From a virus, in the IMG/VR virus record IMGVR_UViG_3300028948_000703, positions 52,273 through 116,272 of that record: a DNA stretch of 64,000 bases; one strand, written 5' to 3'. The notes beneath the pieces were generated by a model that was not told where the DNA came from, searched no databases, and saw only the letters and a list, made by a program, of their open reading frames with translations. Shown here in pieces: positions 1 through 53,299 of this stretch (positions are counted from its first letter, which is position 1; each line of letters starts with the position of its first letter). The position numbers and the translations under genes were made by a program.

Positions 1-141
1 TCTCAAGAAGATTGTGGTTACAAGCCCGCGCGGCAAGATCTGGACCTTTGACAGCGAAAGTGATGCTCGCTGCATCTTCCCTGATAGCTGGGACCGCATC
101 AAAGCTGGACTGTTGGGTTACACTGTCACAGGAGTGTGAAC

Positions 142-339
142 ATGAAGCCTACTATCTATCGTGCATGGATCAATCAACCCAGCACCGATCAGCCCCTTCA
201 TGCGCTGCATGGGCTACGTTGCATTGCAGAGGATACTGGCGGAGCAACTGTTCGTTTATGGTTTGCAGAAGGCGACATCCATTCAATGGAAGCTCTGCGT
301 ACATGTATTAGCAGAATAAAGCTTAGTGAAGCCGGTTGA
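142..339 (+). CDS. hypothetical phage protein
   Basis: GGAG RBS at 131-134 before ATG 142 (MKPTIYRAW...); no recognisable motif. Confidence 0.6.
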   Translation: MKPTIYRAWINQPSTDQPLHALHGLRCIAEDTGGATVRLWFAEGDIHSMEALRTCISRIKLSEAG

Positions 340-388
340 CCCAAACAATCTAGACGCTATACTACCAGCGTTAACAACGGAGCGCACA

Positions 389-640
389 ATGCAGCTTAAG
401 ACCGCAAACGAACTGAACATGCAGGCAGCTATCCAGCAGGGTCTGGGCACGCACTACATGCTGGACGAGAGTGACAACTGCGGGCTCTGCGGCGAAGATC
501 TTGAGGGTGCTGTGAGTGAAGTGCAGGTGGCATCGATCATCAACGACACGATCGAAACCAATACCTGTACGGTCTATACCGATGCTGCCGGCGTGATGCG
601 GGTGGCCAATCCGGACGAATTTGTGAGGTGCTTTGGCTAG
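389..640 (+). CDS. hypothetical phage protein (CxxC)
   Basis: TTGACC..TATACT promoter (~336-363) and CGGAG RBS before ATG 389; CGLC motif. Confidence 0.6.
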   Translation: MQLKTANELNMQAAIQQGLGTHYMLDESDNCGLCGEDLEGAVSEVQVASIINDTIETNTCTVYTDAAGVMRVANPDEFVRCFG

Positions 641-664
641 GCTGTAGCAAGAGAGCTTTATTGG

Positions 665-829
665 GCCCCTGTCGTTTAATTGGAATAGGACGCCGTGCTC
701 GATTTCACTGCCTGACATGGCTATAGTATTGATCATACCAGTGGTTGATTCTCTGTAGGTGTTGGGTAAAGATACTGTGCTGGTACACAGGAGAGCATTG
801 GTATGCAGGTTCGAGACCTGTCAGGGGAA
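665..829 (+). tRNA. tRNA-like gene with ~90-nt insertion in the anticodon loop (identity undetermined)
   Basis: Acceptor CCCCTG/CAGGGG, D-arm GTTT-AATTGGAATA-GGAC, anticodon stem CCGTG/CATTG, T-arm GCAGG-TTCGAGA-CCTGT; insert ~700-790; no encoded CCA. Confidence 0.65.
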
Positions 830-908
830 GCAATAAAGGTAGCCTGTGCGTGATGTAACATACAGGAGCAACTAACCCGAGGCGTCTTCACCACTACGCC
901 TACTCTTG

Positions 909-1871
909 CTAGAGAAATACTTCTTTAAAACGTTGCATCACTGGCCATGGTGCAAACTGCTGAATTCGATCAGACCAAGTAGCCTGCGAACCCAGGTCTT
1001 TGATATTCATGAGTTTTTCCTTGACAGTGGATTCACTATAAAGTAGATTGCTATTGTTGAGCAACACTTGATGATTTTGATCATGGCCGCCCTCCCAGGC
1101 TAGAACGGGCTTGTTCAAGGACAATGCTTCGGCAATTGCAAGGCCAAATGATTCGCCTCCAGATCTAGCATGTATCATTGCATCACAGCTGGCAATAAAG
1201 TTTGATTTTGCTTGAGGGCTGTGTATTTCAGTGAGAAACCTAACCTGCGGATGTGATATCCAAGGTTCTGTGCCAACAAAAACAAAAGTATAGTCTTGCC
1301 GTGCTGCTAAGACTTCGGTGATCGCTTGTTTGACAAATGGGATATCAAAGGTATAATATCCTCCCATGCGTCCAATTACAGTATTAGACTGTGGAATTCC
1401 CAGTATCTCTCGATAGTTGTCAGTGACACTGGGCAGCGTGACCATGTGAGGCACCCAGGGAATTGCAGCAGAATGTCGTTGATTCATTGTTAAAGCCAGC
1501 CATTCACTGATATAAGCATATCTGTGGCCGTGCGGATTGTAGTATTGAAATACAGCATGAATCGCTGTGGCACAACCCGGCGCAACATAGTTGCCATTGC
1601 CAGCATGTATCATGTATAGGAGATCTGGCTTCTCTTGATCAACAAGTCTTGATAGATCATCTTGGCCACAGTGTGATAAAACCTTGAATCTACTCTGCAG
1701 AGATTCTAACACTGCAGGTTCAGTACCAAGATCCTTTGCATATGCAAACGCAGTATCATAGCATATAATGCTTTGGTTTCCAAGTAATGATTGATTATAT
1801 GTGGCATAATCTCTAACAGCTACGGTGGTACCTCTATATGATAATGTGTTGGTGTGAAACAGTATTTTCAT
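909..1871 (-). CDS. glycosyltransferase (GT-B fold, family 4-like)
   Basis: RGTTVA N-terminal motif and HARSGGESFGLAIAEA (E-x7-E) motif. Confidence 0.85.
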   Translation of the reverse strand: MKILFHTNTLSYRGTTVAVRDYATYNQSLLGNQSIICYDTAFAYAKDLGTEPAVLESLQSRFKVLSHCGQDDLSRLVDQEKPDLLYMIHAGNGNYVAPGCATAIHAVFQYYNPHGHRYAYISEWLALTMNQRHSAAIPWVPHMVTLPSVTDNYREILGIPQSNTVIGRMGGYYTFDIPFVKQAITEVLAARQDYTFVFVGTEPWISHPQVRFLTEIHSPQAKSNFIASCDAMIHARSGGESFGLAIAEALSLNKPVLAWEGGHDQNHQVLLNNSNLLYSESTVKEKLMNIKDLGSQATWSDRIQQFAPWPVMQRFKEVFL

Positions 1872-1894
1872 TGTAATGCATTATATGCAATATA

Positions 1895-1929
1895 AAATCG
1901 GTTGCATAATTGGATAAACACTTTATAAT
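1895..1929 (+). promoter_or_regulatory. sigma70-like early promoter with extended AATCGG-TTGCA -35 element
   Basis: AAATCGGTTGCAT-N16-TATAAT; related copies at ~5001, ~5479, ~5765. Confidence 0.7.
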
Positions 1930-1936
1930 CGAACAC

Positions 1937-2092
1937 ATGAACAAGAGCATCAAGCGTTATCTCAAGTGCGGACCCGGTGGGCGACGCTGTGTCTGTTGCT
2001 TTCCTGCTCCGGGTAGCCGCGAACGCAAGTTTGAGTATCGCCGGGCCAAGCGTAAGGCTCGCCAGCAAGCGTTGCGTGATCAGGAGCAGTAA
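1937..2092 (+). CDS. small basic Cys-Cys/Arg-rich protein (probably leaderless)
   Basis: MNKSIKRYLKCGPGGRRCVCCFPAPG...RRAKRKARQQ; ATG 7 nt after the -10 box. Confidence 0.7.
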   Translation: MNKSIKRYLKCGPGGRRCVCCFPAPGSRERKFEYRRAKRKARQQALRDQEQ

Positions 2093-2169
2093 ATGGATCC
2101 TATTTTAGTGATTGCAACAACCGCAATTGCTATGCTAGTGTTGCTTGGATAAAAAATAGCCGGATAGCT

Positions 2170-2209
2170 AAAACCTGGTCCCCGCAGCTCAAAAACCTGG
2201 TCCCCGCAG
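2170..2209. repeat. 18-bp direct repeat x2 (AAAACCTGGTCCCCGCAG), 22-bp period
   Basis: exact copies at 2170-2187 and 2192-2209. Confidence 0.9.
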
Positions 2210-2248
2210 GGGTTTATAAAACACCAATTATCAGTGAGAGATTAAACC

Positions 2249-2737
2249 ATGGCCCTGCTCAATCGTCGAAAGTTCCTGTTTCGCTCGGCTGCAATTGTCA
2301 CTGCCAGCAACTTGATGCCTGGTCACAGCATTGCTCACCTGCTGGAACCCACGCCTCGCGAAGTGATTGTTGCCAACATGAAGATAATCCAACGAGAGCT
2401 GCAGGCCAACAGCATGAGTGATCTCTCAGCCACAGCACTGAGCAATATTGATGACATCATTCATCGGGCTGTGAACAACATCTGTTCGGTGGGTGTGGAC
2501 CGACTTGCTACACCCAGCAAGGAAGATGTTGCTCATGTTTTCAATCCTCGGCACGAATGGTATCGCAGTGATGTGGCCAGCAACTTTCGTGATGTGCCCA
2601 TTGATGTACTGCCCGTGCATGCACTAAAGACAGTGCTGGGCAAGTGGAAGGCTCCAGTTAACTCTCAGCACGAAGAGTTCAAGGACGGTTGGAAGCAGTT
2701 TGTGAGCAAGTATGTCAACACACTGCCCACAATGTAG
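2249..2737 (+). CDS. hypothetical protein with twin-arginine-like N-terminus
   Basis: LNRRKFL followed by a hydrophobic stretch; GAGAG upstream. Confidence 0.7.
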   Translation: MALLNRRKFLFRSAAIVTASNLMPGHSIAHLLEPTPREVIVANMKIIQRELQANSMSDLSATALSNIDDIIHRAVNNICSVGVDRLATPSKEDVAHVFNPRHEWYRSDVASNFRDVPIDVLPVHALKTVLGKWKAPVNSQHEEFKDGWKQFVSKYVNTLPTM

Positions 2738-2823
2738 CTTGCACTAAAACAAGAAGTGCGCTAGACTTGCTCACATACTAGCGCACTTCTTGCCAGATGT
2801 AAAATAAATTTACACCATCTCTG

Positions 2824-2940
2824 CACGGCGTGCCTCGGGCCTATTCACAACCTTTTGCTGTGATTTTCGTCACGGCGTGCCTCGGGCAATATCACAGTGC
2901 ATTTTTGTAGTTTTCATCACGGCTAGCCTCGCAGTCACAG
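2824..2940. repeat. 47-bp-period repeat x3, core CACGGCGTGCCTCG(GGC)...TCACA
   Basis: copies start at 2824, 2871 and 2918 (third degenerate). Confidence 0.85.
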
Positions 2941-3057
2941 CTGAATTTTTTTCTGCGGCTGGCGAACGAATTCATTTTTTTTGCACCTTTTTTGGTAGAC
3001 TGCTGCTAGCAATGTGCTAAGTTCACATTGTTAACACAAACACAAAAGGTAGTGCAA

Positions 3058-3477
3058 ATGATCAGCAACGAGCAAGCAATTGACGCCATGATGTGCAGCT
3101 TCGAAAAGTACGCCGCTCTGCGTGCTGAACTGGGCTTTCCGCTGCCCAGCAAGGTCAACAACAACCTGCTGCCGAGCTGGGTCCTGCGTGTGGGTGAGAA
3201 GCCCAAGACGGAATGGGTCATGCCTAAGCGTGCTTCGCAGCCCGTCCAGCCCGCTGCTGAGACTGCAATCGTCGAAGTCAACGCGCCCGTGCAAGTCGCT
3301 GCAGAGCCCACTGCTGCAAAGCTCGACAGCTGGGCCGCGCGTGTGCGTGCTGTGATCCGTGCAGCCAAAACGGAAGGCCAGACGCCGCAGCAGGTGCTCA
3401 AGCACGTGGTGGAAAGCATGGGCATGAAGGAAAGCAGCGCTCGCAACTGCATCAAGCACAATTGGCTTAAGGTGTGA
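3058..3477 (+). CDS. hypothetical phage protein (possible C-terminal DNA-binding helical domain)
   Basis: AAGGT upstream of ATG 3058; biased codon usage; Ala/Pro linker before a basic helical C-terminus. Confidence 0.7.
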   Translation: MISNEQAIDAMMCSFEKYAALRAELGFPLPSKVNNNLLPSWVLRVGEKPKTEWVMPKRASQPVQPAAETAIVEVNAPVQVAAEPTAAKLDSWAARVRAVIRAAKTEGQTPQQVLKHVVESMGMKESSARNCIKHNWLKV

Positions 3478-4216
3478 GGGGAGGCGCAAGCTTCTTACAC
3501 TGGGAGAAGTGATACCTAAACATAGCGGGTCCTTTTCCAAGCTTATTACAGTGAGGGCACTCATAAACACGCAAAATGTTATGAGTGCCCTCCATCATGC
3601 GTTTTTGATTCGTCTTCCTTGACACTTCACCGCCGAGAAAATTATGCCGTCCTTCAGCTACTAGACGCCTGTGTACTTCACCGCCGAGGAGATGATGCGT
3701 GCCTTCCTCAACACGCTTCCTTTGTAAGTCGCCCCCGAGAAAGTTGTGTGTACCATCCTCGATACGCCTCTTGTTGGCCTTCTTAACGTGTTCTCCGCCC
3801 TGGAAGGGATTTGTTCCGTTTTTAACACGTTGCCGTGCATGATCGCCTCCAACAAAGGGATGTGTACCGTTGGCTAACATCTTATATACAGGATTTCTCT
3901 CCCTAATAAAAGGATGAGTTCCGTCGTCTATGCGCTTTTTTGCGGAAAGCTTTGCTATTTTTGATTTTTCTTCCTTGCTCATACCTAGCCTGGACATCAA
4001 TCGCATAGCTGCGGCCCAGTCGCCTTGGTCAAGATGTATTTGAAGATGATCCTGTATTGACACAGCTAGCAAATTGCTTATATCGTTGTTTGACGGGTCG
4101 CCATCAATGTGATGTATATCATAAGTCCGACCTTGATCGTCCTGTGGGATAGGGCCGTGATGCTGTTCATAGATTTTTCTATAGACACGTGATTGACTTC
4201 TAGCATAAGTAGTCAT
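3467..4216 (-). CDS. HNH homing endonuclease with GTH(P/N)F-GG repeats and C-terminal CPHC finger
   Basis: YDIHHIDGDPSNNDISNL...H..IH HNH motif; about seven internal repeats. Confidence 0.9.
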   Translation of the reverse strand: MTTYARSQSRVYRKIYEQHHGPIPQDDQGRTYDIHHIDGDPSNNDISNLLAVSIQDHLQIHLDQGDWAAAMRLMSRLGMSKEEKSKIAKLSAKKRIDDGTHPFIRERNPVYKMLANGTHPFVGGDHARQRVKNGTNPFQGGEHVKKANKRRIEDGTHNFLGGDLQRKRVEEGTHHLLGGEVHRRLVAEGRHNFLGGEVSRKTNQKRMMEGTHNILRVYECPHCNKLGKGPAMFRYHFSQCKKLAPPLTP

Positions 4217-4284
4217 AGCTGTTGTTCCTCTAAAACAATAGAGCGATCGGGAGTTCCACCGCCGCGGATCGCAACATTATTTAT
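4217..4284 (-). promoter_or_regulatory. late promoter plus RBS-associated hairpins upstream of HNH gene
   Basis: minus strand TATAAATA, then a GCGATC..GATCGC stem and a TTGTT-TTAGAGG-AACAA hairpin covering the GAGG RBS. Confidence 0.55.
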
Positions 4285-4328
4285 AATGGCCTGTGCTGAT
4301 TTTCTTAAATTAAATTTGCCGTGAGTGA

Positions 4329-4532
4329 TTGATTCTAAGAACTTCAGATCCAATCCACACGAGTATCCCAAACCCTACGTGTTGATTTTAAGGAGTCCAT
4401 AGTCAATCCTCACGATCCCTAAGTAGCCGTGTCTGTTGATTTTAAGGATTCCAGGAAAGATCCGCACGAACGCATCTGAAGACTTCTAATGAATGTTAAG
4501 ATAATCCTTAACCCCGGCTATTGATTCTAAGG
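4329..4532. repeat. ~54-bp-period iteron-like array (TTGATTYTAAG...ATCCNCACGA)
   Basis: TTGATTYTAAG at 4329, 4382, 4436, 4521; ATCCNCACGA at 4353, 4406, 4460. Confidence 0.8.
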
Positions 4533-4763
4533 ATCTCGACTAGCCTACAACGGCTAGATTAACTGTTGACACACTTCCAAAATGCACTATAATAAAAAAA
4601 TGGACGAGTTGATCACAGCCATTGTTTTTCAAGCTGTTTACATGCAGGACAACGGCTGCAAATATGCGGCTCGCTTGCCTTGCCAGCAAATCACTGACCC
4701 TGAATGGGGTAATCCAGAGTTTATGAGCGAAGTTACCAGAACGCTCTATCAAGGAAGCTAGCC

Positions 4764-5000
4764 ATGCATTGCTATATGATCATTGAACATCTTGAGCCGG
4801 ATCAACACAAGGGACTGGGAACCATGCACAGCATTGGCACAGTGTTTGCCAGCAGTGACGAGGATGCCATGCAGCAGATCGTTGATCACTGGGGAATCAA
4901 GGATCCCATGCGAGACCTCAGCGATAACTGGGCTGTGGAAAACCGGCAGTTCTCAGTGGTCAAACTGGTCCCGCCAACAGCGGCAATCAAGATCAAGTAA
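4764..5000 (+). CDS. hypothetical phage protein
   Basis: AAGGAAG RBS; TTGACA..TATAAT promoter at ~4566-4593. Confidence 0.65.
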   Translation: MHCYMIIEHLEPDQHKGLGTMHSIGTVFASSDEDAMQQIVDHWGIKDPMRDLSDNWAVENRQFSVVKLVPPTAAIKIK

Positions 5001-5042
5001 AATCGGTTTACAACACATGTGCCATTGTGTATAAGTAGTTAG

Positions 5043-5216
5043 ATGAAAACATACGGACTCACTGATCGATCCCTGCGCGGATGCTGTCCTGGGCATGATA
5101 AATTCCCTCGAGAGAGCTATAATAACCGTCGCTCTAAGCGGAGAAATCGTCTAACAACTAAGATAATGCGTAGACGGCAGCGTCGTATTGATCGCCGCGC
5201 CGCTAAAGCCAGCTAA
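5043..5216 (+). CDS. small basic Cys-Cys/Arg-rich protein, 57 aa (absent from ORF track)
   Basis: MKTYGLTDRSLRGCCPGHDKFPRESYNNRRSKRRNRLTTKIMRRRQRRIDRRAAKAS; ATG 7 nt after TTTACA-N17-TATAAG. Confidence 0.75.
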   Translation: MKTYGLTDRSLRGCCPGHDKFPRESYNNRRSKRRNRLTTKIMRRRQRRIDRRAAKAS

Positions 5217-5221
5217 CATCA

Positions 5222-5374
5222 ATGAAAGCCTACGGACACAGTCGCAAAGACAAGCTGGAATGCCGGTACGGATGTTGCACTGGCAAAAGCGGCGCAAAGA
5301 AGAATTGCCGTCCTGTAGTTGACAAAGCCCGGCGAAAGCGCGCACGGCGTGCAGCTAAAGATACCCATGCATAA
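5222..5374 (+). CDS. small basic Cys-Cys/Arg-rich protein, 50 aa (absent from ORF track)
   Basis: MKAYGHSRKDKLECRYGCCTGKSGAKKNCRPVVDKARRKRARRAAKDTHA; shares MKxYG..GCC..RRAAK with the upstream ORF. Confidence 0.75.
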   Translation: MKAYGHSRKDKLECRYGCCTGKSGAKKNCRPVVDKARRKRARRAAKDTHA

Positions 5375-5537
5375 TCAACATTGCCTTGACTATTACCTCC
5401 ACATGCAGGAAGAGGCAGGCGATGTCTGCGACCTAGATCATCAAACCATGTGGCAGGATTTTTGGTTTGACGAACAAGAATCGGTTGCAAAATTCTAAAA
5501 CTCTGTTAGTATAGCACACCGTTAACAGGAGCACACC

Positions 5538-5756
5538 GTGGCCAAAGAGCTCAAGGTTGGTGAGCGGATCAACACACAAGAACTCAGCTATGCACATTTT
5601 ACTGTTGCCGCTGGGTCAACGATTCAACTATCAATGTACTCAAACAGCGATCACGAGCCTCGCAAGATCGTCACAGCTACTCTGGAATACGACATTGATA
5701 TCTTTGAAGACAGCCGCGTGCAAGTCCTGATCACAGACATCAAGAACGCAGATTAG
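5538..5756 (+). CDS. hypothetical phage protein
   Basis: AGGAG RBS, GTG start, upstream AATCGGTTGCA promoter. Confidence 0.7.
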   Translation: MAKELKVGERINTQELSYAHFTVAAGSTIQLSMYSNSDHEPRKIVTATLEYDIDIFEDSRVQVLITDIKNAD

Positions 5757-5827
5757 GCCAAAGAAATCGGTTGCAGAGTATTAACGAGCTGCTAATATAG
5801 CGCTTGTACACAGTTGCACACAACTTG

Positions 5828-5863
5828 ACCCGCTGATGTTGAAAAGCACAGCGGGTTCTTTTT
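5828..5863 (+). terminator. intrinsic terminator
   Basis: ACCCGCTG...CAGCGGGT stem followed by TCTTTTT. Confidence 0.7.
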
Positions 5864-6127
5864 GACCCTGAACTGCTCGTGCTGCTAGGCCTAGAGCTAG
5901 CCTATCAATACCCACACGACTAGATAGGCCAACAGTCAAATGTCTCCCTAGCCGTGGCTGAGCTTATATGGCATCCTTGATATGTTCTGCATGGCTTGAC
6001 AAGATTCTATTGATTTCATCTAGGATCGTGTCTAGATATCCGGAGGTATCCATGGCAATCTAGCACGGTTATAGAGGGTCAAGTCAGCTTATCTGAGAAC
6101 ATTAGTCTAACTCGTGCTGGGCTTCTT

Positions 6128-10503: not shown

Positions 10504-11532
10504 TTATGTTTGAGTAGGCGGAGGAGTTTCAGTTGCCGGTGGTGTTTCGTTTTCTGGTTTCTTAGTTGCAGGTCTCTTTTTATCTGTCCAATAATCTGAT
10601 AGCCTGTTTAATTTCTGTATTTCTGCTTCAACATCGTAGATTTTTTTCTCAATTCCAGATTCTTCTCGAGGAGCTTCAATATCGTTTTTATGTGCACGAA
10701 GTCCTGCTACAAGATCAGTGTATAGATAAGGAAATCTTTCTTTAATTTGTTCCGCTGAAACTTGCATATCTAGAGGATTTTTAAACTGATTACTTGCTGC
10801 ATCAAATTGAAACTTTTCTGGTAGTTCTTTTTGTGGTTTACCAAATGCATCTGTTCCTGTATAACTACGTTGTTCAGCTGGGACCATTCCAAAAATTGCA
10901 CCAGCTTTACTGTACCTTTCCCAGTTTCCTGGATCTGTGCTACTAGCAGTGCAAAATGTTGCTCCTTTGCCAAATGCGCAAGCAGCTCCGCGATTTTGTA
11001 ATAACCATATTTTATAATCTGGATTATCAACAACCAATATACTTCTTTTATTTTTAATTATAGCATTAAGTACTGCATCTTTTCTTAGATCTTTTAGAAT
11101 ATTGTCATAATGTGTTACAAGATAACGATGTAAATTTTTAACTCCATTGTACTGAGTTAGTTCTTTGTGATTAGAGTCTAATAGATTACGATTTCTCAAT
11201 AACATAAAGTCTCTAATAGTTTCAGGATATTCACCGGTGATATCTTCCCAGAGATCATTACCGTTAGCATAGCATTTAGCTAGCCACATATGATTTTTAC
11301 CATCTCTTACCGATATAATACCATGTACGCCTTCTGCTTCAATTCTATCAAGTTCTTTTACAAACCATGTTGCAAGATCAAGATCTGTTTTAGTACGATC
11401 TCTACGTATGTTTACAGGAACTGTACGATCAAACCGTACGTGATCGGCTATACGAGAAACTAGCTGTTTATTAGCTAGTACATTTCGAGCACCTGCTGTG
11501 TCTTCTGTGAGGATTACTTCTAATATACGCAT
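10504..11532 (-). CDS. putative virion internal protein
   Basis: MRILEVILTE leader; AACAFGKGATFCTA...KFQFD motif. Confidence 0.6.
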   Translation of the reverse strand: MRILEVILTEDTAGARNVLANKQLVSRIADHVRFDRTVPVNIRRDRTKTDLDLATWFVKELDRIEAEGVHGIISVRDGKNHMWLAKCYANGNDLWEDITGEYPETIRDFMLLRNRNLLDSNHKELTQYNGVKNLHRYLVTHYDNILKDLRKDAVLNAIIKNKRSILVVDNPDYKIWLLQNRGAACAFGKGATFCTASSTDPGNWERYSKAGAIFGMVPAEQRSYTGTDAFGKPQKELPEKFQFDAASNQFKNPLDMQVSAEQIKERFPYLYTDLVAGLRAHKNDIEAPREESGIEKKIYDVEAEIQKLNRLSDYWTDKKRPATKKPENETPPATETPPPTQT

Positions 11533-11538
11533 TTGATA

Positions 11539-13992
11539 TTAATACCATATGTTAAATTGGTCGCTATCATCTATCTTATCAAGGAAATTATACATAAACT
11601 CCTTCATTGCCGACGGTTTGCGTTGCATTAGATCTTTAACAACTTCTTCTTTATCTTTAGGTGTTGTATAACTATCAACTGTTTGATTTGCAATAGTTGT
11701 TAATTTGCGTAGAGGAGTTGTTGCCCAATTTGGTTTTGATGTATCCAACGCAATTTGCATCTGATCAATCTTATCCATTTTGTTTAAAAGATTTTGAGCT
11801 TCTTTGCGATTACCGCCTTCAGTATATCTCATAGCCATTTTCTGCATTTCGCCCATTTTTCTCTGTAACATTTTAACAAGTAACGGACTTAGCTGTTGAG
11901 CAATATCGCGTCCTGGTTCTTTAGTAACAAATTTACCTGGAGTAAATGGTGGAGTTTCTTTTCTCTTTGTGGCAATTTCTCTTTCTGTGCCTCCAGGTAT
12001 TCTTTCGCCTGGCACAGTAGTAGATTGAATCCATTTTTGCGCTTGTGGATCCCATACTCTCACAGGTTTTCCAGTTGTGGCAACAATCTCTCCTTTTTCA
12101 GGATCACTAATATATTCGCCCTTACCAGGAATTTTTCCTGCTTGGTATTTGCCAATCCATGCTTTAGCAGCATCACCTTTTAGTCCGCCTGCTCTTGAAG
12201 TTGACACATATAGCTCTAAATCTGATCCCTTTATGTCGCGACCAATTGCACTCTTTAATAGATCAAAGAAGTTTTGTGTTAGTTCTGGTGTATACGGTCT
12301 ACCAGCTCTAGTCATTGTGACTACGGTTGCAGGAGCCATTGGATTTAGATTACCACGACGTCTTGCAGCAGAGTTATCAACTTTAACTACTGGTTTTTCA
12401 TATGTTTTATTTGGATTTTTAGGATGAGGAACGGTTTCAGTTTTAACTTTTTCTTTTCCTGTAGCTGGATCAATTTCTGTTTCATATTCATCGGGTATTA
12501 GCATATTATCAACACGCATACCTTCGCTGAATGCAACTACTTGATATTGAAGTTTTGTATCACGCTCTGGGTTATAAGATTTACCTCTTTCCTGTGCGGA
12601 TTTTATTTTTGCAGTAAAGTCTTTGAGATCTGGACGAACTGCTGCAACTCCACGAGGACCTTTGATTACCATGAAATGATCTGGGCTAGCTTTGAATAGC
12701 ATCATATAAATACGATCTGCAGTTTTAGCTATTTGATCCCATTCGGCTGTTGCACTAACGTTATCGTATTTGTGCAACCATTTAGCCAGTGCTCTAGCAC
12801 TTTCTGCAGCAGTTACATCAGCTGCAGTTGGTTCTTTCCATTCTTTACCACGACGTTGTGCAGCAGCCTTTCCTTTACCAGTTAAACTAGCACGACGAGC
12901 TTTTGCAGCTTCATCATCTTCTGCTTCTCCATCTTTTGCTGCCCAATAACGATAACCTGTAGGATCAAGTATGTTTAAAAGTGTGCTACGTTCAAATAGG
13001 TAATTTTCTACTAATTTTGTAGCATAATTCTTTGTAGAATTTTTTAAATTATTATGTTCTTCAACTAAAACCGATTCGGTTAATATAGTTAAACCTGCTA
13101 GTTGTTTAATTCTAGCTAAATCTGCATTATTTTCAAGCAATGGTTTTTTGGTCATTATAGCCTCTCTTAGTAATTTCTTTGGTGCTCCGTAGTCGTCGTA
13201 TTCATCTTCGTCAGATGTAATTGCAGATTGTGTATTGTTATTCACAGCATCTGCTTCTGGATAAGCATAGATATAGTATCCGGCAAAATCTTTAACCACA
13301 TGAAAACGTGTGTCGCCGGTTCTAAATTCTATAATTTCTGGAGTGTATCCTGGCATAATTTGGCCGAAATCAATGTCAACTTGTCCAAGATTTTCTGCAT
13401 TTTGTTTTAGCCAACCTAAAACTGAATTAACTTCTAAACTAGTGTTTGGCCCTCGGTTGTTAACATTTGCAATAGTTACAATATCTTCTTGAGGAGTTTT
13501 TGTGAACATTTGAAACAGTTGTCTTCCCATGGCTCTTATAGGACCTTGTAACCATCCTGGTAATGTAGATATTGTGTGCCAATTTGGAGATATTCTCTCA
13601 TCGGCTAATAAGTCCCCTGTGACTCTAGCAATATCTGATCTAACTGTTACAGGAAGTGTGTTAATTACAGCTGGTAAATTTTCATAATTTACTGGACGAG
13701 TGTTAGCTAGTCCTGCTCGACGAGCTGCTTCTTCGTCGCTGATTTCATCGTCGCCGACACCTTGTAATCTACTCATCATATCACGCATTTGATCGGTAGA
13801 TGTCATTCCTCGTAGAGCAGACCGAGTTTGATCTGCTGTGGCTCTTTTGAGTTCTGGTTCAACTGGGCGATTTGATGGTATATCTGTAGCACTGCTAGCA
13901 GTAACAACAGGTTGATCAACACGTGGAGAAATTAAGTCGTCAAATGTAGAGTCTGTGGGTTTTGTTATTGTTGGGCGATTAACCGGCGGCAT
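11539..13992 (-). CDS. large hypothetical (putative virion) protein
   Basis: 817-aa ORF, AGGAG RBS, late motif upstream; LARIKQLAGL motif. Confidence 0.7.
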   Translation of the reverse strand: MPPVNRPTITKPTDSTFDDLISPRVDQPVVTASSATDIPSNRPVEPELKRATADQTRSALRGMTSTDQMRDMMSRLQGVGDDEISDEEAARRAGLANTRPVNYENLPAVINTLPVTVRSDIARVTGDLLADERISPNWHTISTLPGWLQGPIRAMGRQLFQMFTKTPQEDIVTIANVNNRGPNTSLEVNSVLGWLKQNAENLGQVDIDFGQIMPGYTPEIIEFRTGDTRFHVVKDFAGYYIYAYPEADAVNNNTQSAITSDEDEYDDYGAPKKLLREAIMTKKPLLENNADLARIKQLAGLTILTESVLVEEHNNLKNSTKNYATKLVENYLFERSTLLNILDPTGYRYWAAKDGEAEDDEAAKARRASLTGKGKAAAQRRGKEWKEPTAADVTAAESARALAKWLHKYDNVSATAEWDQIAKTADRIYMMLFKASPDHFMVIKGPRGVAAVRPDLKDFTAKIKSAQERGKSYNPERDTKLQYQVVAFSEGMRVDNMLIPDEYETEIDPATGKEKVKTETVPHPKNPNKTYEKPVVKVDNSAARRRGNLNPMAPATVVTMTRAGRPYTPELTQNFFDLLKSAIGRDIKGSDLELYVSTSRAGGLKGDAAKAWIGKYQAGKIPGKGEYISDPEKGEIVATTGKPVRVWDPQAQKWIQSTTVPGERIPGGTEREIATKRKETPPFTPGKFVTKEPGRDIAQQLSPLLVKMLQRKMGEMQKMAMRYTEGGNRKEAQNLLNKMDKIDQMQIALDTSKPNWATTPLRKLTTIANQTVDSYTTPKDKEEVVKDLMQRKPSAMKEFMYNFLDKIDDSDQFNIWY

Positions 13993-16977: not shown

Positions 16978-17830
16978 AGCTCTGAGATTACAAGCTTAGC
17001 ATTAGTACCTCGGAGATTATATTCAACCTTGCGAGTCGTTTTCCTCCGACATCCACAATCCCGGCGACGCAGCGCACTATTGGAACTGTCTACTAACAAT
17101 GTCGCCTTTTTTAAGGTCAGGCAGTAGACCTTTCATGTAATGCTACTCTACAACTTCTAATCCGTTAGCCTTGCGAGCTATTCAGGAGCGCTAACCCCTT
17201 ACGACTCTTCCGTTATAAACCAACTCCGCCTTGCGAGCTTTGCTGGACTTGATTCCCTTGCGGGTCAAGCTTTAGACATCTTTCACACTACACAGGGCCA
17301 GGCTTTGCTTTTTGTAATCGAAAGTTGGAATCGAACCAACATACGACTGCTTAAAATGCAGTTGCCTAAACCGTTCGGCTATATCGTGTAACCTACTGTG
17401 ATGTGCTAGCCCAGTTGCTCAGTATCTTGTTAGATACCAAATACAACACACCACCTGTATTTCGTCTTGCGGACTACTATACCGTTTACCTGGACACTGT
17501 CTGATCTTACGAACCAGCCAATCCCCTCAAAACTGCCAACCGCCCTTAGTTGCAACACCTTGGACTAATTGACTATCCGTTGTCTATCAGCATTTGGTTG
17601 GTTTGCATGTAAAGGTGATACTTGCGGTATCTTGCTCCTCACCGATTGGCTCTGGAACACATCCTTTCGGACCTTTACCCAACCGTCCTGCTTACCACCC
17701 TTTAGTGGATGGCCCCTTTCGGAGCAGACCGGACCTGTATAGTTGGACCTATTGCTAGGTGCTGGTATGTAGGCTTTCCAGCTTTGGCTCAGTTGCCTGA
17801 CTTATCCTTTATTGACGCTATACCGCCAAT
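16978..17830 (-). ncRNA. GOLLD-like giant structured ncRNA (~850 nt)
   Basis: ORF-free; many GNRA-capped hairpins (CGCAAG, CGAAAG, CGTAAG); internal tRNA-like element; upstream promoter and downstream terminator; size and embedded tRNA fit GOLLD. Confidence 0.75.
17316..17388 (-). tRNA. degenerate tRNA-Lys(UUU)-like element inside the large ncRNA
   Basis: D-arm GCCG..AGGC, anticodon arm ACTGC-ATTTTAA-GCAGT, T-arm GTTGG-TTCGATT-CCAAC; acceptor stem has three mismatches. Confidence 0.55.
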
Positions 17831-40558: not shown

Positions 40559-41257
40559 TTATTTACGATCACCTAACAAACTAAGTAAATGAACAAAAAT
40601 ATTAATAAAATTAAGATATAAACTTAACGCACCAAAAATACTTGCCTTTTCTGGGCTTTCAAATCCGTATACACTGCCATTGCTTGTATAATCACTTTTT
40701 ATATTTTGAGTATCGTATGCTGTAAGTCCAACAAAAATTAAAACGCCAATAACTGAAATTGCAAATGATAAAAATGAACTTGCTAAAAATATATTTACCA
40801 AGCCTGCAATAATTATACCTATGAGTCCCATTAATAAAAATGAACCCCATGAGCTAAGGCTTTTATTTGTTGTATAACCATATAAACTGGCAGCAGCAAA
40901 TGTCCCTGCAGTAATAAAAAATACCTTAGTAATGCTGGCACCTGTATACAATAAGAATAAAGTACTTAAACTTAATCCCATTGAAACACTAAAAAGATAA
41001 AATAGCAATGTTGCAGTTGCAATACTAAAAGATTTAATACCAAAAGACAGAGCAAAAACAAATGCCAATGGTAGAAGTGCAAAAACTATCCACACAGGAC
41101 TTTGTATATAGGCTGTTAAATAGACCGACGCAAACCAAGCAGTTAAACCTGTAACAGCTAAACCTGCTGTCATCTTGTTATAAATGCCAAGCATGAATTG
41201 ACGTAATCCTTGATCAATACTGTCAACTTGTGCAATTGCTGAAAATTGATTGTTCAT
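40559..41257 (-). CDS. Bax inhibitor-1/YccA family membrane protein
   Basis: seven TM segments; SLYGYTT, GLTAYDTQ, GALSLYLNFINIF. Confidence 0.9.
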   Translation of the reverse strand: MNNQFSAIAQVDSIDQGLRQFMLGIYNKMTAGLAVTGLTAWFASVYLTAYIQSPVWIVFALLPLAFVFALSFGIKSFSIATATLLFYLFSVSMGLSLSTLFLLYTGASITKVFFITAGTFAAASLYGYTTNKSLSSWGSFLLMGLIGIIIAGLVNIFLASSFLSFAISVIGVLIFVGLTAYDTQNIKSDYTSNGSVYGFESPEKASIFGALSLYLNFINIFVHLLSLLGDRK

Positions 41258-41328
41258 TGTTTCTCCATATTTGTAAGAAATTTACATTAAATTATAATTG
41301 ATTTTTTACAAAAATCAAATGGATACCA

Positions 41329-41600
41329 AAAAGGTAGGCGAATAGTTGCCTATCCGCCTTTCTGTTTCCAGGTTCCCTTTAAAACCCATTGAGGCTTACG
41401 CTGCTAGGCGAACTTCCTCAAATGCAATGTTATCATTGACATTTATTTGTTTTGAACAGATTGACGGTCGTATCTTACCGAATATCTCAATCAATTTTTA
41501 CACACACGTCGATCCTAGTTTACCCACATAAAAAAATGTGGTGTAGGTAACGGGTACTGCCCCCGTGTCCGCATTGCTTATTATATTAATCTACAAACGA
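41329..41600 (-). ncRNA. ssrA: circularly permuted (two-piece) tmRNA; tag (A)VNDNIAFEEVRLAA
   Basis: acceptor piece ..GACACGGGGGCAGTACCCGTTACCTACACCA (ends 41539); 11-nt spacer; coding piece GTGGGTAAACTAGGATCGAC from 41527; G3:U70 pair; tag ORF 41440-41396; 3' hairpin. Confidence 0.92.
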
Positions 41601-41615
41601 TATTAATTATATTTA

Positions 41616-42245
41616 TTATGTTGTAATAGAAGAAGTCAAATTTTTTCTAAACTCAGTTGAAATAAAATCTAAATCAGATTTATAGTATAATTTTCTATCT
41701 TTTGGATTATATCCTTCATCTAAATTTGTTAGATATCCACCATATATTTGTAAACCAAATATATCTATTAGTTTTGCTTCTAACGACAATGCTTCACATT
41801 CGGTTAAATTATCTTTAATAATAAAAGATATAGGTTCTTTATCTAATTCATTTATCCATTGTCGAATTTTTCGATGTGTTTCGTTCCTAGCCAGATTTGA
41901 AAATCTATCACCTAAGCCTTTACCAACATAAAAAGGAAAATGTGTCATTCCTAATGTAGCAGAAAATGTAGTTAACCAATTAAACCCCACCGCTATTTTT
42001 TTCAAAGGATTCATATGGACATAAACATAGTATTGTCGTGTTTGGTCTAATTTTAAATTGTTATATAAACTTGAAATGTCTGTATTATACACATTCATAC
42101 ATGACTCAAATTTACGCCTATTCATCTCTTTCTTAGAAATTTTATTTGGATTAATTTGTCCTAACCTAGATTTTATTTGAGTTCCTAATTTTGATACTTG
42201 TTTATAGTCATCCCAATCAATTGTAAATGTTTTAATATTTGTCAT
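41616..42245 (-). CDS. GIY-YIG (LEM-3-like) homing endonuclease
   Basis: YYVYVH...PFYVGKG..R...EALSLEAKLI...LTN. Confidence 0.85.
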   Translation of the reverse strand: MTNIKTFTIDWDDYKQVSKLGTQIKSRLGQINPNKISKKEMNRRKFESCMNVYNTDISSLYNNLKLDQTRQYYVYVHMNPLKKIAVGFNWLTTFSATLGMTHFPFYVGKGLGDRFSNLARNETHRKIRQWINELDKEPISFIIKDNLTECEALSLEAKLIDIFGLQIYGGYLTNLDEGYNPKDRKLYYKSDLDFISTEFRKNLTSSITT

Positions 42246-42254
42246 TGTAATGTA

Positions 42255-42415
42255 TCGATCCCATTTCGCCCCCATCATAGACACATTAAGTAAACAGCCG
42301 CAAAGGTTAGCTACTCCTCTGGTCCGGGATACCCTCCCGGTGCTTAACGTGTCTATGGTGGAGGCGTCGGGAGTTGAACCCGAGTCTTGTTCACCTATAT
42401 ATTGCTATCAACGAC
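42255..42415 (-). ncRNA. second permuted tmRNA tRNA-like domain lacking a tag region
   Basis: ..GACTCGGGTTCAACTCCCGACGCCTCCACCA (ends 42356); 82-nt hairpin-closed spacer; GGGGGCGAAATGGGATCGA from 42273; G3:U70 pair. Confidence 0.8.
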
Positions 42416-42424
42416 AGCTACGTT

Positions 42425-42453
42425 ATTTATAGCACAAAACTTATAAAAAGCAA
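42425..42453 (-). promoter_or_regulatory. promoter TTGCTT-N16-TATAAATA, partly duplicated at ~42683-42716
   Basis: TATAAAAAGCAAGAGAT on + strand at ~42442 and ~42699. Confidence 0.6.
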
Positions 42454-42512
42454 GAGATTATAAAAATTAGCGATCACAGGGTTATGAGAATATATTATAC
42501 AGATAACCTTAA

Positions 42513-42630
42513 TCTTACATCATACGCACACGGCCAAGGGTAACTATCCAGCCTGCTTAACTACTGGATCATGCCTTGTTAGGTATAAAGCAGGAAATCC
42601 CGTAATAAACCATGTACGTATGATGTACGA
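42513..42630 (-). ncRNA. candidate pseudoknotted small RNA
   Basis: long closing stem TACATCATACGTACA/TGTGCGTATGATGTA; CAAGG/CCTTG, ATCCAG/CTGGAT and CCTGCTT/AAGCAGG pairings; promoter upstream. Confidence 0.55.
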
Positions 42631-42718
42631 TGTAAGATTGAGGAGTTAACCTTACATCATTTCTATCTATATAACTACTATAGTTATAACACAACAATTA
42701 TAAAAAGCAAGAGATCAT

Positions 42719-42824
42719 AAAAAACATTTGGCGTCTGCATTTCCTTGGTTATCTTACTTGCAACTCCGGACCCCATAGTATTATCTAACTTGTCCTTTGT
42801 ATCCGAGAAGACCAAATGTTTTTT
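42719..42824. ncRNA. candidate small RNA closed by a long stem
   Basis: AAAAAACATTTGG/CCAAATGTTTTTT closing stem; no ORF. Confidence 0.4.
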
Positions 42825-42856
42825 GTTAGTAAAAATATTTACCAAATTATATTAAA

Positions 42857-43762
42857 TCAACCCACACTTGAATTTTTAATTCTATGTGCAACCATACTAG
42901 CATATTGCCAACAGAACGTAGCAGCAGCTAGAGATGTAATTTCACCATGATCATACGGTGGACTTATTTCTACACAATCCATTCCAATCCAGTTAACACT
43001 GTCTAAATTGTCTAACAATTCTCTCAACCAAACTGTGTTAAGTCCTGCAATTTCCGGAGTTCCTGTTCCTGGTGCATATGCAGGATCAAGACAATCTATA
43101 TCCAATGACAGATACGTTGGTGAATCTTTTACTTTGGTTTTAATAATATCTGCCATTGCAACAGGAGACCATCGTAATGCACGAGCAGCAGTGTAAGTTG
43201 TTCCTCCGTTTTTTTCTAGATATGTTCTTGATATTTCATCACTTGGACTTCGTATGCCAATGCTTATTGTGTTATTACTATTAATTAAATTTTTCTGAAT
43301 TGAATTATATAACCATGTCCCGTGGCCATATGGTTCGCCAAAGTGACTTGACCATGTATCACAGTGTGCATCAAAATGCACAACTGCGATATCTTTATAT
43401 TTCTTGCTTAATGCACGAAGTATACCAAAAGTAATCGAATGATCACCACCCAATGTAATTAGGTTTTTATCTTGATTATCTAATATTGCCCCTTCAACTG
43501 CAGCTAGCATTATATGTGTGTTACCAGTAGGCAACACCATATTACCTAAGTCTTGAACGTAATCGTTAAGGTTTACTTGATACTTAGGATGTGTACCATC
43601 TGTAAGCATAAGGCTAACATTACGAATTGCATTAGGGCCCATTCGAGTGCCACTGCGAAATGTAGTTGCGCAATCAATGGGTGCACCGATAACACCAATT
43701 GGTCTAGATTCCTGTCCTACACCGCAAAATGTAGGCATTAGTTGAAAAGGCTGATGCATCAT
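42857..43762 (-). CDS. speB: agmatinase (ureohydrolase family)
   Basis: GGDHSIT, HFDAHCD, SLDIDCLDPAYAPGTGTPE, VEISPPYD. Confidence 0.92.
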   Translation of the reverse strand: MMHQPFQLMPTFCGVGQESRPIGVIGAPIDCATTFRSGTRMGPNAIRNVSLMLTDGTHPKYQVNLNDYVQDLGNMVLPTGNTHIMLAAVEGAILDNQDKNLITLGGDHSITFGILRALSKKYKDIAVVHFDAHCDTWSSHFGEPYGHGTWLYNSIQKNLINSNNTISIGIRSPSDEISRTYLEKNGGTTYTAARALRWSPVAMADIIKTKVKDSPTYLSLDIDCLDPAYAPGTGTPEIAGLNTVWLRELLDNLDSVNWIGMDCVEISPPYDHGEITSLAAATFCWQYASMVAHRIKNSSVG

Positions 43763-51941: not shown

Positions 51942-53299
51942 CCAACTAGCCAATCTGTTCCATTGCTAACTACTGGCACTGCAAATGCACCACTCCCAGC
52001 TGCAGTTGCAAGGAAAGTGTTTGTGTTACAGTCAGTAATAAAAAATCTAGCACCTGCTCCGGCTACTGCTGGATCTGGTAAATTATCAAATGTAGACGAA
52101 CCTGATCCATAGAAATTATTTTGTTGCGGATTTAAAATTAAATTTTGTGTACCATTATCTAACACATATGGTTGTAATGTATCAAACACATCACCGATGC
52201 TCGAATTAAGAGTTGTACCGGTATCCCATAGAATTACATTTAAATCGTAATTTAGAATACAATCAACAAACGTGTTATGTGAGCTTGCTATTCCAGGGTT
52301 AGAACCAAAATTAACTATAGCAGATCCATCTAAATTGTAAAAGCGAGACATTGAAATTGTGGAATATTTTGGTCCATTAAAGTTTGCACTTTCACCAAAA
52401 TTTACCCCTCTGAAACATTCCGTAAACGCACTTCTAGATACAGTTGTGTAGGCTACAGGATCATCTGCATATATTCCATATTGTAGATTTGTAAACATAC
52501 AATTAATAATTTGTGCGTCGTATGTTTGTATAACATCACCGATACTTCTCAGATATAATCCTTTCTGCGGATTGGTAAGAGGATTTCCTAATTGGAACCC
52601 TCCTTTAAATTCAACGTTTTCAAATCTTATGGTCTGATATCTATTAAGATGTCCGATATCCATATAGTTTCCATCGGTATCAAGTGTTAAATCAGCTATT
52701 GATATATTTTCAGGTAATATTCCAACCGATCCTCCAATATTTGCAGCAGTGTTTCCCATGCTATCAGCTGTTTCAAGCATATAAGGCAGTGTGTTATCAA
52801 TTGGTTGAATAATGGTTTTTCCTTTACCCGCGCCGATAAACCCTACATAAGGATATAATAACAGAGGAATTGAAATTTTATATATGCCCGGTGGAAAATA
52901 TAAAAAAACTCTAGTTTGATAATTTGCAGGAGTAAAAGTTCCTTCTGAATAAAATAATTCATGTATAGCAGAATTAATGGCAGGCGCGTCGTCTGTTACC
53001 CCATCGCCAACTGCTCCAAAGTCTTTAACACTTACTATGTCATTTAATTTGCTACCAAGAGGTCGAGCAGTAGACACTGCTACTTCGGCTAACATGGTTC
53101 GCCATGTATTTGTGATTAAATCTGTATTTTTTGAAAATTGTGTAAGAACTTGCGTATTAAATCCATAACCCGGACTATTACCAATATATAGCTCTCGCGT
53201 ATCAAGACACCATCCAAATTCACCTTCGGCTAATTCGTCAGGTAAATCTAGTTTTACACCTCTGCGGTGCTGTAATCTTGAGATATTTGTTATTGCCAC
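51938..53299 (-). CDS. tail fibre/spike protein with pectate-lyase-like beta-helix
   Basis: LQHRRG..LAEGEFGW..LYIG; VSVKDFGAVGDGVTDD; YFPPGIYKI. Confidence 0.8.
   Translation of the reverse strand: MAITNISRLQHRRGVKLDLPDELAEGEFGWCLDTRELYIGNSPGYGFNTQVLTQFSKNTDLITNTWRTMLAEVAVSTARPLGSKLNDIVSVKDFGAVGDGVTDDAPAINSAIHELFYSEGTFTPANYQTRVFLYFPPGIYKISIPLLLYPYVGFIGAGKGKTIIQPIDNTLPYMLETADSMGNTAANIGGSVGILPENISIADLTLDTDGNYMDIGHLNRYQTIRFENVEFKGGFQLGNPLTNPQKGLYLRSIGDVIQTYDAQIINCMFTNLQYGIYADDPVAYTTVSRSAFTECFRGVNFGESANFNGPKYSTISMSRFYNLDGSAIVNFGSNPGIASSHNTFVDCILNYDLNVILWDTGTTLNSSIGDVFDTLQPYVLDNGTQNLILNPQQNNFYGSGSSTFDNLPDPAVAGAGARFFITDCNTNTFLATAAGSGAFAVPVVSNGTDWLVG

Follow-up and report, generated by a model that had tools for sequence, protein, structure and literature searches.

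A tmRNA locus of an uncultured freshwater phage that was probably invaded by a nuclease gene travelling with its own permuted tmRNA gene

The transfer-messenger RNA (tmRNA) locus in IMG/VR virus record IMGVR_UViG_3300028948_000703 raises the question of why a phage should carry two permuted tRNA-like domains in tandem, the upstream one of which runs straight into a nuclease-like open reading frame (ORF) instead of a tag. The record comes from an uncultured freshwater phage. The window, by which we mean the whole stretch of 64,000 nucleotides (nt) that was analysed (positions 52,273 to 116,272), is the last 64 kb of this 116-kb record, the estimated completeness of which is 28% (CheckV). From sequence comparison, the answer is probably that a cassette consisting of the nuclease gene and a complete tmRNA gene entered a resident tmRNA gene and left the 5' part of that gene stranded as a scar. 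The upstream tRNA-like domain is referred to as TLD1 and the complete downstream copy as tmRNA2.

The anatomy of the locus was observed directly. Rfam returned two tmRNA matches in the window, both on the minus strand, one complete (41351-41638) and one partial (42255-42386). A custom base-pair descriptor scan found a T stem of 5/5 and an acceptor stem of 7/7 pairs in both tRNA-like domains, the G3:U70 pair is present in each, and among the loci scanned with it the window alone yielded two domains. The first-pass annotation, a reading of the sequence alone, had described two such domains, a complete downstream tmRNA with a tag and an upstream domain with a promoter, T arm, CCA end and G3:U70, and all of this was confirmed. 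It had also named ARAGORN and the alpha_tmRNA model as a check on both copies, and here the outcome was divided: the model gave tmRNA2 136 bits and left TLD1 at 42.5 bits, under the gathering score of 50, and ARAGORN detected neither tmRNA in the window.

TLD1 is complete as a tRNA-like domain. On the minus strand, a promoter made up of TTGCTT (42453-42448), a 16-nt spacer and a T4-late-type TATAAATA box (42431-42424) precedes the T arm (42383-42367), the 3' strand of the acceptor (42366-42360) and ACCA (42359-42356). An 82-nt hairpin spacer (42355-42274) then leads to the 5' acceptor strand (42273-42267) and the D-loop analogue (42266-42255), and a count of nine bases, against the earlier estimate of about ten, separates TLD1 from the ATG of the 209-residue nuclease ORF at 42245. 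The promoter box was read directly from the sequence and aligns with the same box of relatives; it was not listed by a simple sigma-70 consensus scan. The fold of the TLD1 region gave a z of -5.26 against shuffles. The Rfam model tmRNA_permuted (213 positions, gathering score 47) matched TLD1 with 51.1 bits, but only at positions 33-105; positions 106-213 are absent and positions 1-32 unpaired. Our own model, R1, gave TLD1 49.9 bits. As first reported, no tag ORF lies behind TLD1: its homology to the gene of a related phage locus, L004, stops after GGGATCGAT, and the nuclease ORF comes next. The reading frame is likewise open through the domain, from 42404 across TLD1 into the nuclease ORF. 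The further statement that helix-2 complementarity is missing agrees with a duplex test, in which no partner for the TLD1 leader was found above chance (z -0.1), with the qualification that this test is of low power and that the intact tmRNA2 fails it too.

The downstream copy, in contrast, matches tmRNA_permuted over all 213 positions (112 bits). Its tRNA-like domain (41566-41509) has the permuted order with a spacer of 11 nt, and its tag ORF (41440-41396) translates as VNDNIAFEEVRLAA followed by a stop codon, that is, with a hydrophobic end in LAA. The resume codon is GUC, not GCN. An ATAAATA box of its own overlaps the stop codon of the nuclease ORF. The parts of the locus, in the order in which they are met on the minus strand, are as follows.

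42655 to 42727, minus strand: third and shortest promoter box with the first part of a leader, no T arm.
42418 to 42466, minus strand: promoter box of the resident (upstream) tmRNA gene; the ATAAAT core is invariant across 11 aligned tmRNA 5' regions.
42387 to 42417, minus strand: leader of the resident gene, homologous in alignments to the helix 2 5' strand of relatives.
42255 to 42386, minus strand: TLD1, the upstream tRNA-like domain (Rfam, model R1, descriptor scan, fold, identity to L004).
41616 to 42245, minus strand, stop codon included: GIY-YIG-like nuclease ORF of 209 amino acids (family, motifs, predicted fold).
41351 to 41638, minus strand: tmRNA2, a complete permuted tmRNA gene (Rfam, tag, promoter alignment).
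41336 to 41359, minus strand: intrinsic-terminator-like hairpin with a 10-pair stem, five of the pairs G-C, and a T run; it closes the unit.

Related phages bear on where TLD1 came from. A total of 44 loci were collected, 34 around the arginase gene and 10 around the Bax1-I gene, and 13 of the arginase loci were scanned with Rfam. Exactly one permuted tmRNA follows the arginase gene in 11 of these 13, and none was found in L030 and L036. TLD1 starts about 470 nt past the arginase gene, which is also the position of the single tmRNA in L004, L015, L026 and L029. The homology between TLD1 and the L004 gene was directly observed: positions 42455-42349, covering the promoter box, leader, T arm, acceptor and CCA, align with L004 6437-6543 at 83% identity over 107 nt (blastn), and the 5' part of TLD1 is 87% identical over 87 aligned columns, L004 being its best partner. 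By the flanking proteins, too, L004 is the closest phage on either side (arginase 64.4%, large subunit of topoisomerase 64.2%). Past GGGATCGAT, however, the L004 gene runs into helix 2 and the tag and the window runs into the nuclease. Members of the nuclease family were found in none of the 44 loci, which held only distant GIY-YIG genes, elsewhere. By this comparison of related phages, which had been proposed for mapping the insertion, the point of the break or deletion would lie just past GGGATCGAT. On these alignments TLD1 is best described as the stranded front end of a resident, L004-like permuted tmRNA gene.

The second gene has a different history. TLD1 and the 5' part of tmRNA2 are 75% identical over 72 columns, which is the baseline of the measure, as for unrelated pairs, and they differ in T-loop type, in acceptor sequence and in their spacers, of 82 nt in TLD1 and 11 nt in tmRNA2. 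For the 5' part of tmRNA2 the best partners are L019 (85%) and L015 (81%). Since the mutual identity is at baseline and the nearest relatives are L004 for the one and L019 and L015 for the other, the two are assigned to separate lineages, and tmRNA2, judged by its sequence, is a complete gene of a lineage other than that of TLD1. It would now supply the tmRNA function. Identities of the flanking proteins were too close to one another for proof of a mosaic backbone (for example 64.2% versus 62.9% for topoisomerase). An exact 25-nt pattern of TLD1 had its sole match in L003, an unrelated high-GC phage with an identical 3' end of a standard tmRNA; the sequence of the T arm and acceptor is therefore generic. 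The L003 region concerned (10778-11873, minus strand) holds a standard tmRNA (116.9 bits) beside a bacterial-type RNase P RNA (187.7 bits).

TLD1 is not the only fragment. A 49-nt direct repeat (42675-42723 versus 42418-42466, 86%) marks a third copy of the promoter and leader, which aligns over some 70 nt with the TLD1 leader and with L004 (blastn to L004 6437-6491, 74.5%). This third copy, at 42655-42727, is probably an older remnant, and with such a fragment standing upstream of TLD1 the locus looks as if tmRNA 5' ends had piled up in it. The two promoter-box copies are separated by about 200 nt of non-coding DNA (42467-42674, minus strand), which contains a hairpin and an internal 15-nt repeat (42509-42523, 42646-42660). 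An Rfam search of 41200-42900 gave no match at E <= 1 for this segment and none in the 470 nt upstream of TLD1; the segment could be a small RNA or the debris of an earlier insertion.

The ORF between the two domains occurs as a single copy in the 116-kb record. For its label as a GIY-YIG nuclease, given at the outset, Pfam offers weak support: the single protein matched LEM-3_GIY-YIG at E 0.0036 with 17.7 bits, where the cut-off is 27. An alignment of 31 sequences shows the conserved motifs YYVYxH, PFYVGKG, R, RNETHRK, E and NLDEG, with Y75, H77, Y106, G108, K109, G110, R114, R120, E156 and N174 invariant. The AlphaFold2 model (pLDDT 90.3) has a core of strand/helix/strand/helix/strand/helix at residues 72-163 with a helical N-terminal part ahead of it. 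The top Foldseek matches are all GIY-YIG enzymes (PD-T4-3, the N-terminal domain of UvrC and R.Eco29kI; best E 4.5e-3, TM 0.33), and a profile of the nuclease searched against the PDB matched 9u75 (E 0.006). The GIY-YIG identity is better backed by the motifs and the predicted fold than by Pfam. All N-termini in the alignment begin at the position of the ATG at 42245, and the open frame upstream is therefore not part of the protein. We presume from its sequence that the ORF encodes a free-standing homing endonuclease. A role as an RNase that processes tmRNA was rejected, since most relatives with a tmRNA lack the gene and the proteins closest to it in structure act on DNA.

At least 138 relatives of about 200 amino acids were found at E <= 0.001, all of them unannotated, including P0002 and P0003 at 87% and 65% identity; PF22945 appears among the precomputed domains of nine of the 120 relatives listed. 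A scan of viral contigs with the single nuclease protein found no relative, but the alignment-based scan did. Among GenBank phages eight records matched, none covering 80% or more of the nuclease, and blastn of the locus against GenBank phages gave nothing beyond one 59-nt match in a Ralstonia phage. This is a large unannotated family, with no member in cultured phages and apparently specialised on tmRNA.

The link between this family and tmRNA was directly observed. A permuted tmRNA lies within about 100 nt of the family member in 29 of 37 viral loci, or 22 of 28 when near-identical loci are merged. The count of 29 comprises 27 found by Rfam (16/20 plus 11/17), L048, found by ARAGORN and R1, and L072, found by direct reading. 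The tmRNA gene begins no more than tens of bases past the nuclease stop codon on the same strand in 15 of the 22 merged groups, lies just upstream on the same strand in three and is on the opposite strand in three. In L072 (locus 2930-3700) the nuclease ORF (2971-3561) occupies the spacer of a tmRNA gene that is intact apart from it, with six bases from ACCA to the ATG and one from the stop codon to the 5' acceptor strand; the tag, read directly, is ANDNSVLAQDFALAA. No tmRNA was found at L064, L065, L066, L069, L073, L078, L082 and L084, the last of which ends 109 nt upstream of the nuclease match. In a metagenome scan, which gave more than 360 hits for the family, the R1 tRNA-like domain stood beside 11 of the 15 best-matching loci and beside none of the 65 loci that matched in the catalytic core only. 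The nuclease family shows a close and specific association with the permuted tmRNA genes of phages, on which it appears to be specialised, and its distribution among related genomes is sporadic, beside a conserved gene that is its presumed target. A different nuclease gene is found at the same place: in L013 the tmRNA is directly preceded by a SegE-type GIY-YIG gene (PF19835, 28.7 bits; L013/L014 6365-7165), and the tmRNA locus is a hot spot for such nuclease genes. L004 has an unassigned ORF of 187 residues where L013 has its SegE-type gene. In L048 (3590-3660) the last 20 or so codons of the nuclease run through the downstream tRNA-like domain, the stop codon lying within the D-loop analogue.

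The recurrence of remnants was likewise observed directly. A second domain on the same strand upstream of the nuclease was found in three of 28 other nuclease loci (R1, E <= 0.1). L048 (30.8 bits) has a near-complete upstream domain, with an acceptor of 6/7 pairs, 53 nt ahead of the nuclease start, and then a full tmRNA. In L052 (23.6 bits) an L004-like promoter, T arm and CCA are followed by about 45 nt of spacer, the nuclease ATG and a full tmRNA. L080 (14.2 bits, E 0.09) carries an upstream pseudo-tmRNA whose 5' acceptor strand pairs at 5/7 positions only. In most loci the DNA ahead of the nuclease is not tmRNA-like but unrelated sequence, either coding or not. When direct repeats on either side of the nuclease were sought by local alignment, L080 alone was singled out; this test had no power, as the two-domain window itself gave z -0.7.

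Of the three readings offered by the first-pass annotation, the one that fits best is that a homing nuclease invaded ssrA and brought a diverged replacement copy; the link of the family to tmRNA, its absence from 44 related loci, the L004-like character of TLD1 and the two lineages all agree with it. The following course of events can be envisaged. During co-infection the nuclease would cut a tmRNA gene that lacks the nuclease, by analogy with SegB of T4 and with mitochondrial mobile ORFs. The nuclease-bearing genome would serve as the template for repair of the break, the nuclease and the adjoining tmRNA gene would be copied into the recipient, and the recipient's own 5' part, up to the point of the break or deletion (here just past GGGATCGAT), would be left behind. 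The old promoter would be kept and now precedes both the tRNA-like remnant and the nuclease; remnant, nuclease and tmRNA2 would probably be transcribed as one unit up to the terminator at 41336, and the promoter of the remnant may drive the nuclease today. We infer that the protein is an active nuclease, that it homes, in which direction the transfer ran and that the unit is transcribed.

Several observations weigh against this account. TLD1 is without any decay (perfect stems, ACCA), which fits a recent event and selection equally; we take the still-foldable state of TLD1 to mean that the event was recent, not that the domain has acquired a new function. A donor was not found: whichever segment of tmRNA2 is taken, its best relative stays at or below about 79-85%, and as the 3' parts of the tmRNA genes are all 73-85% identical, a crossover could not be placed. 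No close relative free of the nuclease was among the phages compared, L004 having only about 64% protein identity, and the empty site is deduced. The break points vary among loci, with no defined insertion site, and the upstream domain of L048 goes with a nuclease only 51% identical, which would also fit a conserved role of that domain in place of repeated accidents. For the window protein alone the Pfam match is sub-threshold and the Foldseek E-values are weak, and no public RNA run containing the stretch turned up.

A further step would be that the TLD1 promoter drives the nuclease, that RNase P and trimming of the CCA end free its mRNA, and that TLD1 serves as the left homology arm; this is conceivable, though rather doubtful. 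If true, remnant, nuclease and tmRNA would form a self-contained homing cassette for any phage tmRNA gene, whatever its neighbours, and a selfish gene would have an intron-free way of living inside a structured RNA gene, to which the filled spacer of L072 would be a sister solution.

Closely related is the explanation that TLD1 has been kept by selection, either as promoter and processing module of the nuclease (RNase P at 42273, trimming at 42356) or, in the DNA, as the left homology arm. In its favour, the old promoter box is retained upstream, a terminator scan listed no terminator-like site on the minus strand between TLD1 and the nuclease, the nuclease ORF has no obvious Shine-Dalgarno sequence before it, the nucleases of L072 and L052 likewise start right behind a T arm/CCA module, upstream domains accompany nucleases as diverged as that of L048, and TLD1 is structurally perfect. 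However, an upstream domain occurs in so few of the other nuclease loci, with unrelated coding or non-coding DNA in its place in most, and the extent of the remnant varies from locus to locus, the acceptor of L080 being degenerate, that selection on TLD1 seems unlikely.

It is very improbable that the 5' part of a single tmRNA gene was duplicated in tandem on the spot, independently of any mobility of the nuclease, which would have landed between the copies later. The two copies in L080 share an identical T arm and acceptor 3' strand, which fits duplication or gene conversion. The domains of the window, however, differ in T-loop type, acceptor and spacer and are no more alike than the baseline, and their nearest relatives are in different phages (L004 as against L019 and L015), as is also the case for L048 and L052.

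Still less credit can be given to TLD1 as a working RNA, whether as a tag-less decoy that is charged with alanine and binds SmpB or as a whole-protein tmRNA leading onto the 209-codon ORF. G3:U70, ACCA, the T arm and the D-loop analogue are intact and the frame is open through the domain, and 72 sequences are entered as 'Permuted, no CDS' in the tmRNA database (PMC11915505). In contrast, the 3' strand of helix 2, pseudoknot 1 and the resume context are missing, with nine nt to the ATG, the Rfam match is confined to the central model positions given above, the family proteins begin at the ATG and not upstream of it, the arrangement is not conserved in the family, and a complete tmRNA lies 600 nt downstream. 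The two other readings of the first-pass annotation find no backing. A processed leader or whole-protein tag is at odds with an open frame that is not conserved and with an upstream domain at three of 28 loci, and a tag-less decoy with the lack of helix 2, pseudoknot and resume context and with a rare arrangement whose breaks vary.

Finally, while metagenome assembly might have joined two phage variants at conserved tmRNA sequence, and conserved RNA genes are classic chimera points, such an artefact is hardly to be entertained, because short public contigs identical to the window bridge both junctions (X1, 42221-42407, TLD1/nuclease; X2, 41458-41726, from a different study, nuclease/tmRNA2) and comparable architectures occur in the independent contigs L048, L052 and L080. 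X1 may come from the sample behind the window's own assembly. Among the short window-identical contigs, drawn from four public DNA runs with incomplete coverage, there were no joints and no variant free of the nuclease.

The proposed invasion of the resident gene by a nuclease-tmRNA cassette has parallels in known systems. Among systems known from experiment, SegB of phage T4 comes closest. This free-standing homing endonuclease of GIY-YIG type is encoded in the tRNA cluster, recognises a 27-bp site that includes the T-psi-C motif and promotes the inheritance of the T4 tRNA region (PMC2330249). The window gene resembles it in being an intron-less gene of GIY-YIG type among tRNA-like genes of a T4-like phage. 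SegB homing carries neighbouring RNA genes along and displaces recipient markers, and by analogy the same would apply here. There is, however, no sequence relationship beyond the GIY-YIG core, the Pfam SegE and Seg models miss the window protein, and the domain order differs, the window protein having a helical N-terminal part before the catalytic core. The target here would also be a two-piece tmRNA gene, of which a partial copy is left behind, by a homing that is proposed from analogy.

In architecture the nearest parallel is the mitochondrial mobile ORF (mORF). Such mORFs carry a replacement gene end, with examples in Allomyces atp6 and in Glomus atp6, atp9, cox2 and nad3 (PMC3630166). There too an endonuclease ORF has inserted into a gene and is accompanied by a diverged copy, of foreign origin, of the part that it disrupts, and the native part persists as a nearby remnant that is closest to the gene of relatives. 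The mORFs described there concern protein genes of organelles, the 3' (C-terminal) end of which is replaced, and their nucleases are mostly LAGLIDADG. In contrast, the window presents a phage RNA gene whose native 5' end was apparently stranded, the incoming unit being a whole gene with its own promoter.

Genes for tmRNA are known to be invaded in another manner. Group I introns, some with LAGLIDADG homing endonuclease genes, are reported in the T-psi-C loop, as is a tRNA-Ala gene in one tmRNA spacer (PMC11915505). With the intron-form genes the present locus shares the exploitation of the conserved tRNA-like domain by homing-endonuclease genes. It differs from them in having no intron, the function being saved by a second gene or, in L072, by a spacer removed on maturation, and in the nuclease class (GIY-YIG) and gene form (permuted). 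Two-piece ssrA genes are themselves known from aquatic T4-like myophages, namely Melnitz and the pelagimyophages (PMC9004378), and the window agrees with these in having an alphaproteobacterial-type permuted ssrA behind an early/late promoter in a low-GC aquatic myophage. The Melnitz-type locus is a single complete gene with a glutamine riboswitch, and the available part of that paper mentions no adjoining nuclease or duplicated domain. A literature search, limited to the accessible text of its sources and with supplementary lists of phage tmRNAs outside its scope, gave no report of GIY-YIG genes at permuted tmRNA genes.

The invasion reading explains the odd 'tandem tmRNA' without a new RNA function. 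It would make phage tmRNA loci a natural system for intron-free homing, whether beside the gene, in a discarded spacer or by way of a spare copy. It carries a warning for annotation, in that partial tmRNA matches beside small ORFs in phage contigs are likely to be invasion scars. It also predicts that tmRNA genes travel between phages as passengers, which bears on the inference of hosts from the phylogeny of phage ssrA, as for Melnitz. Recognition of the tRNA-like domain, if the nuclease is capable of it, would add a new specificity to those of small GIY-YIG enzymes.

The remainder of the window is of low G+C content, about 33%, except for its first 6 kb (1-6000) with 46-51%. T4-like genes in it include a split topoisomerase II, an arginase-family gene, an endolysin and a Bax1-I-family membrane protein. 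The gene for the last (40559-41257, minus strand, 193 bits) lies directly downstream of tmRNA2; the Bax1-I neighbour of tmRNA recurs in L013, L015, L019 and others, but not in L004. Elsewhere in the window, ARAGORN reported an odd tRNA with a two-base anticodon at 749-829, and Rfam matched a full-length GOLLD RNA at 16979-17454 (minus strand, 196.8 bits, model positions 1-416 of 416), within which a tRNA match at 17319-17386 (minus strand) is embedded.

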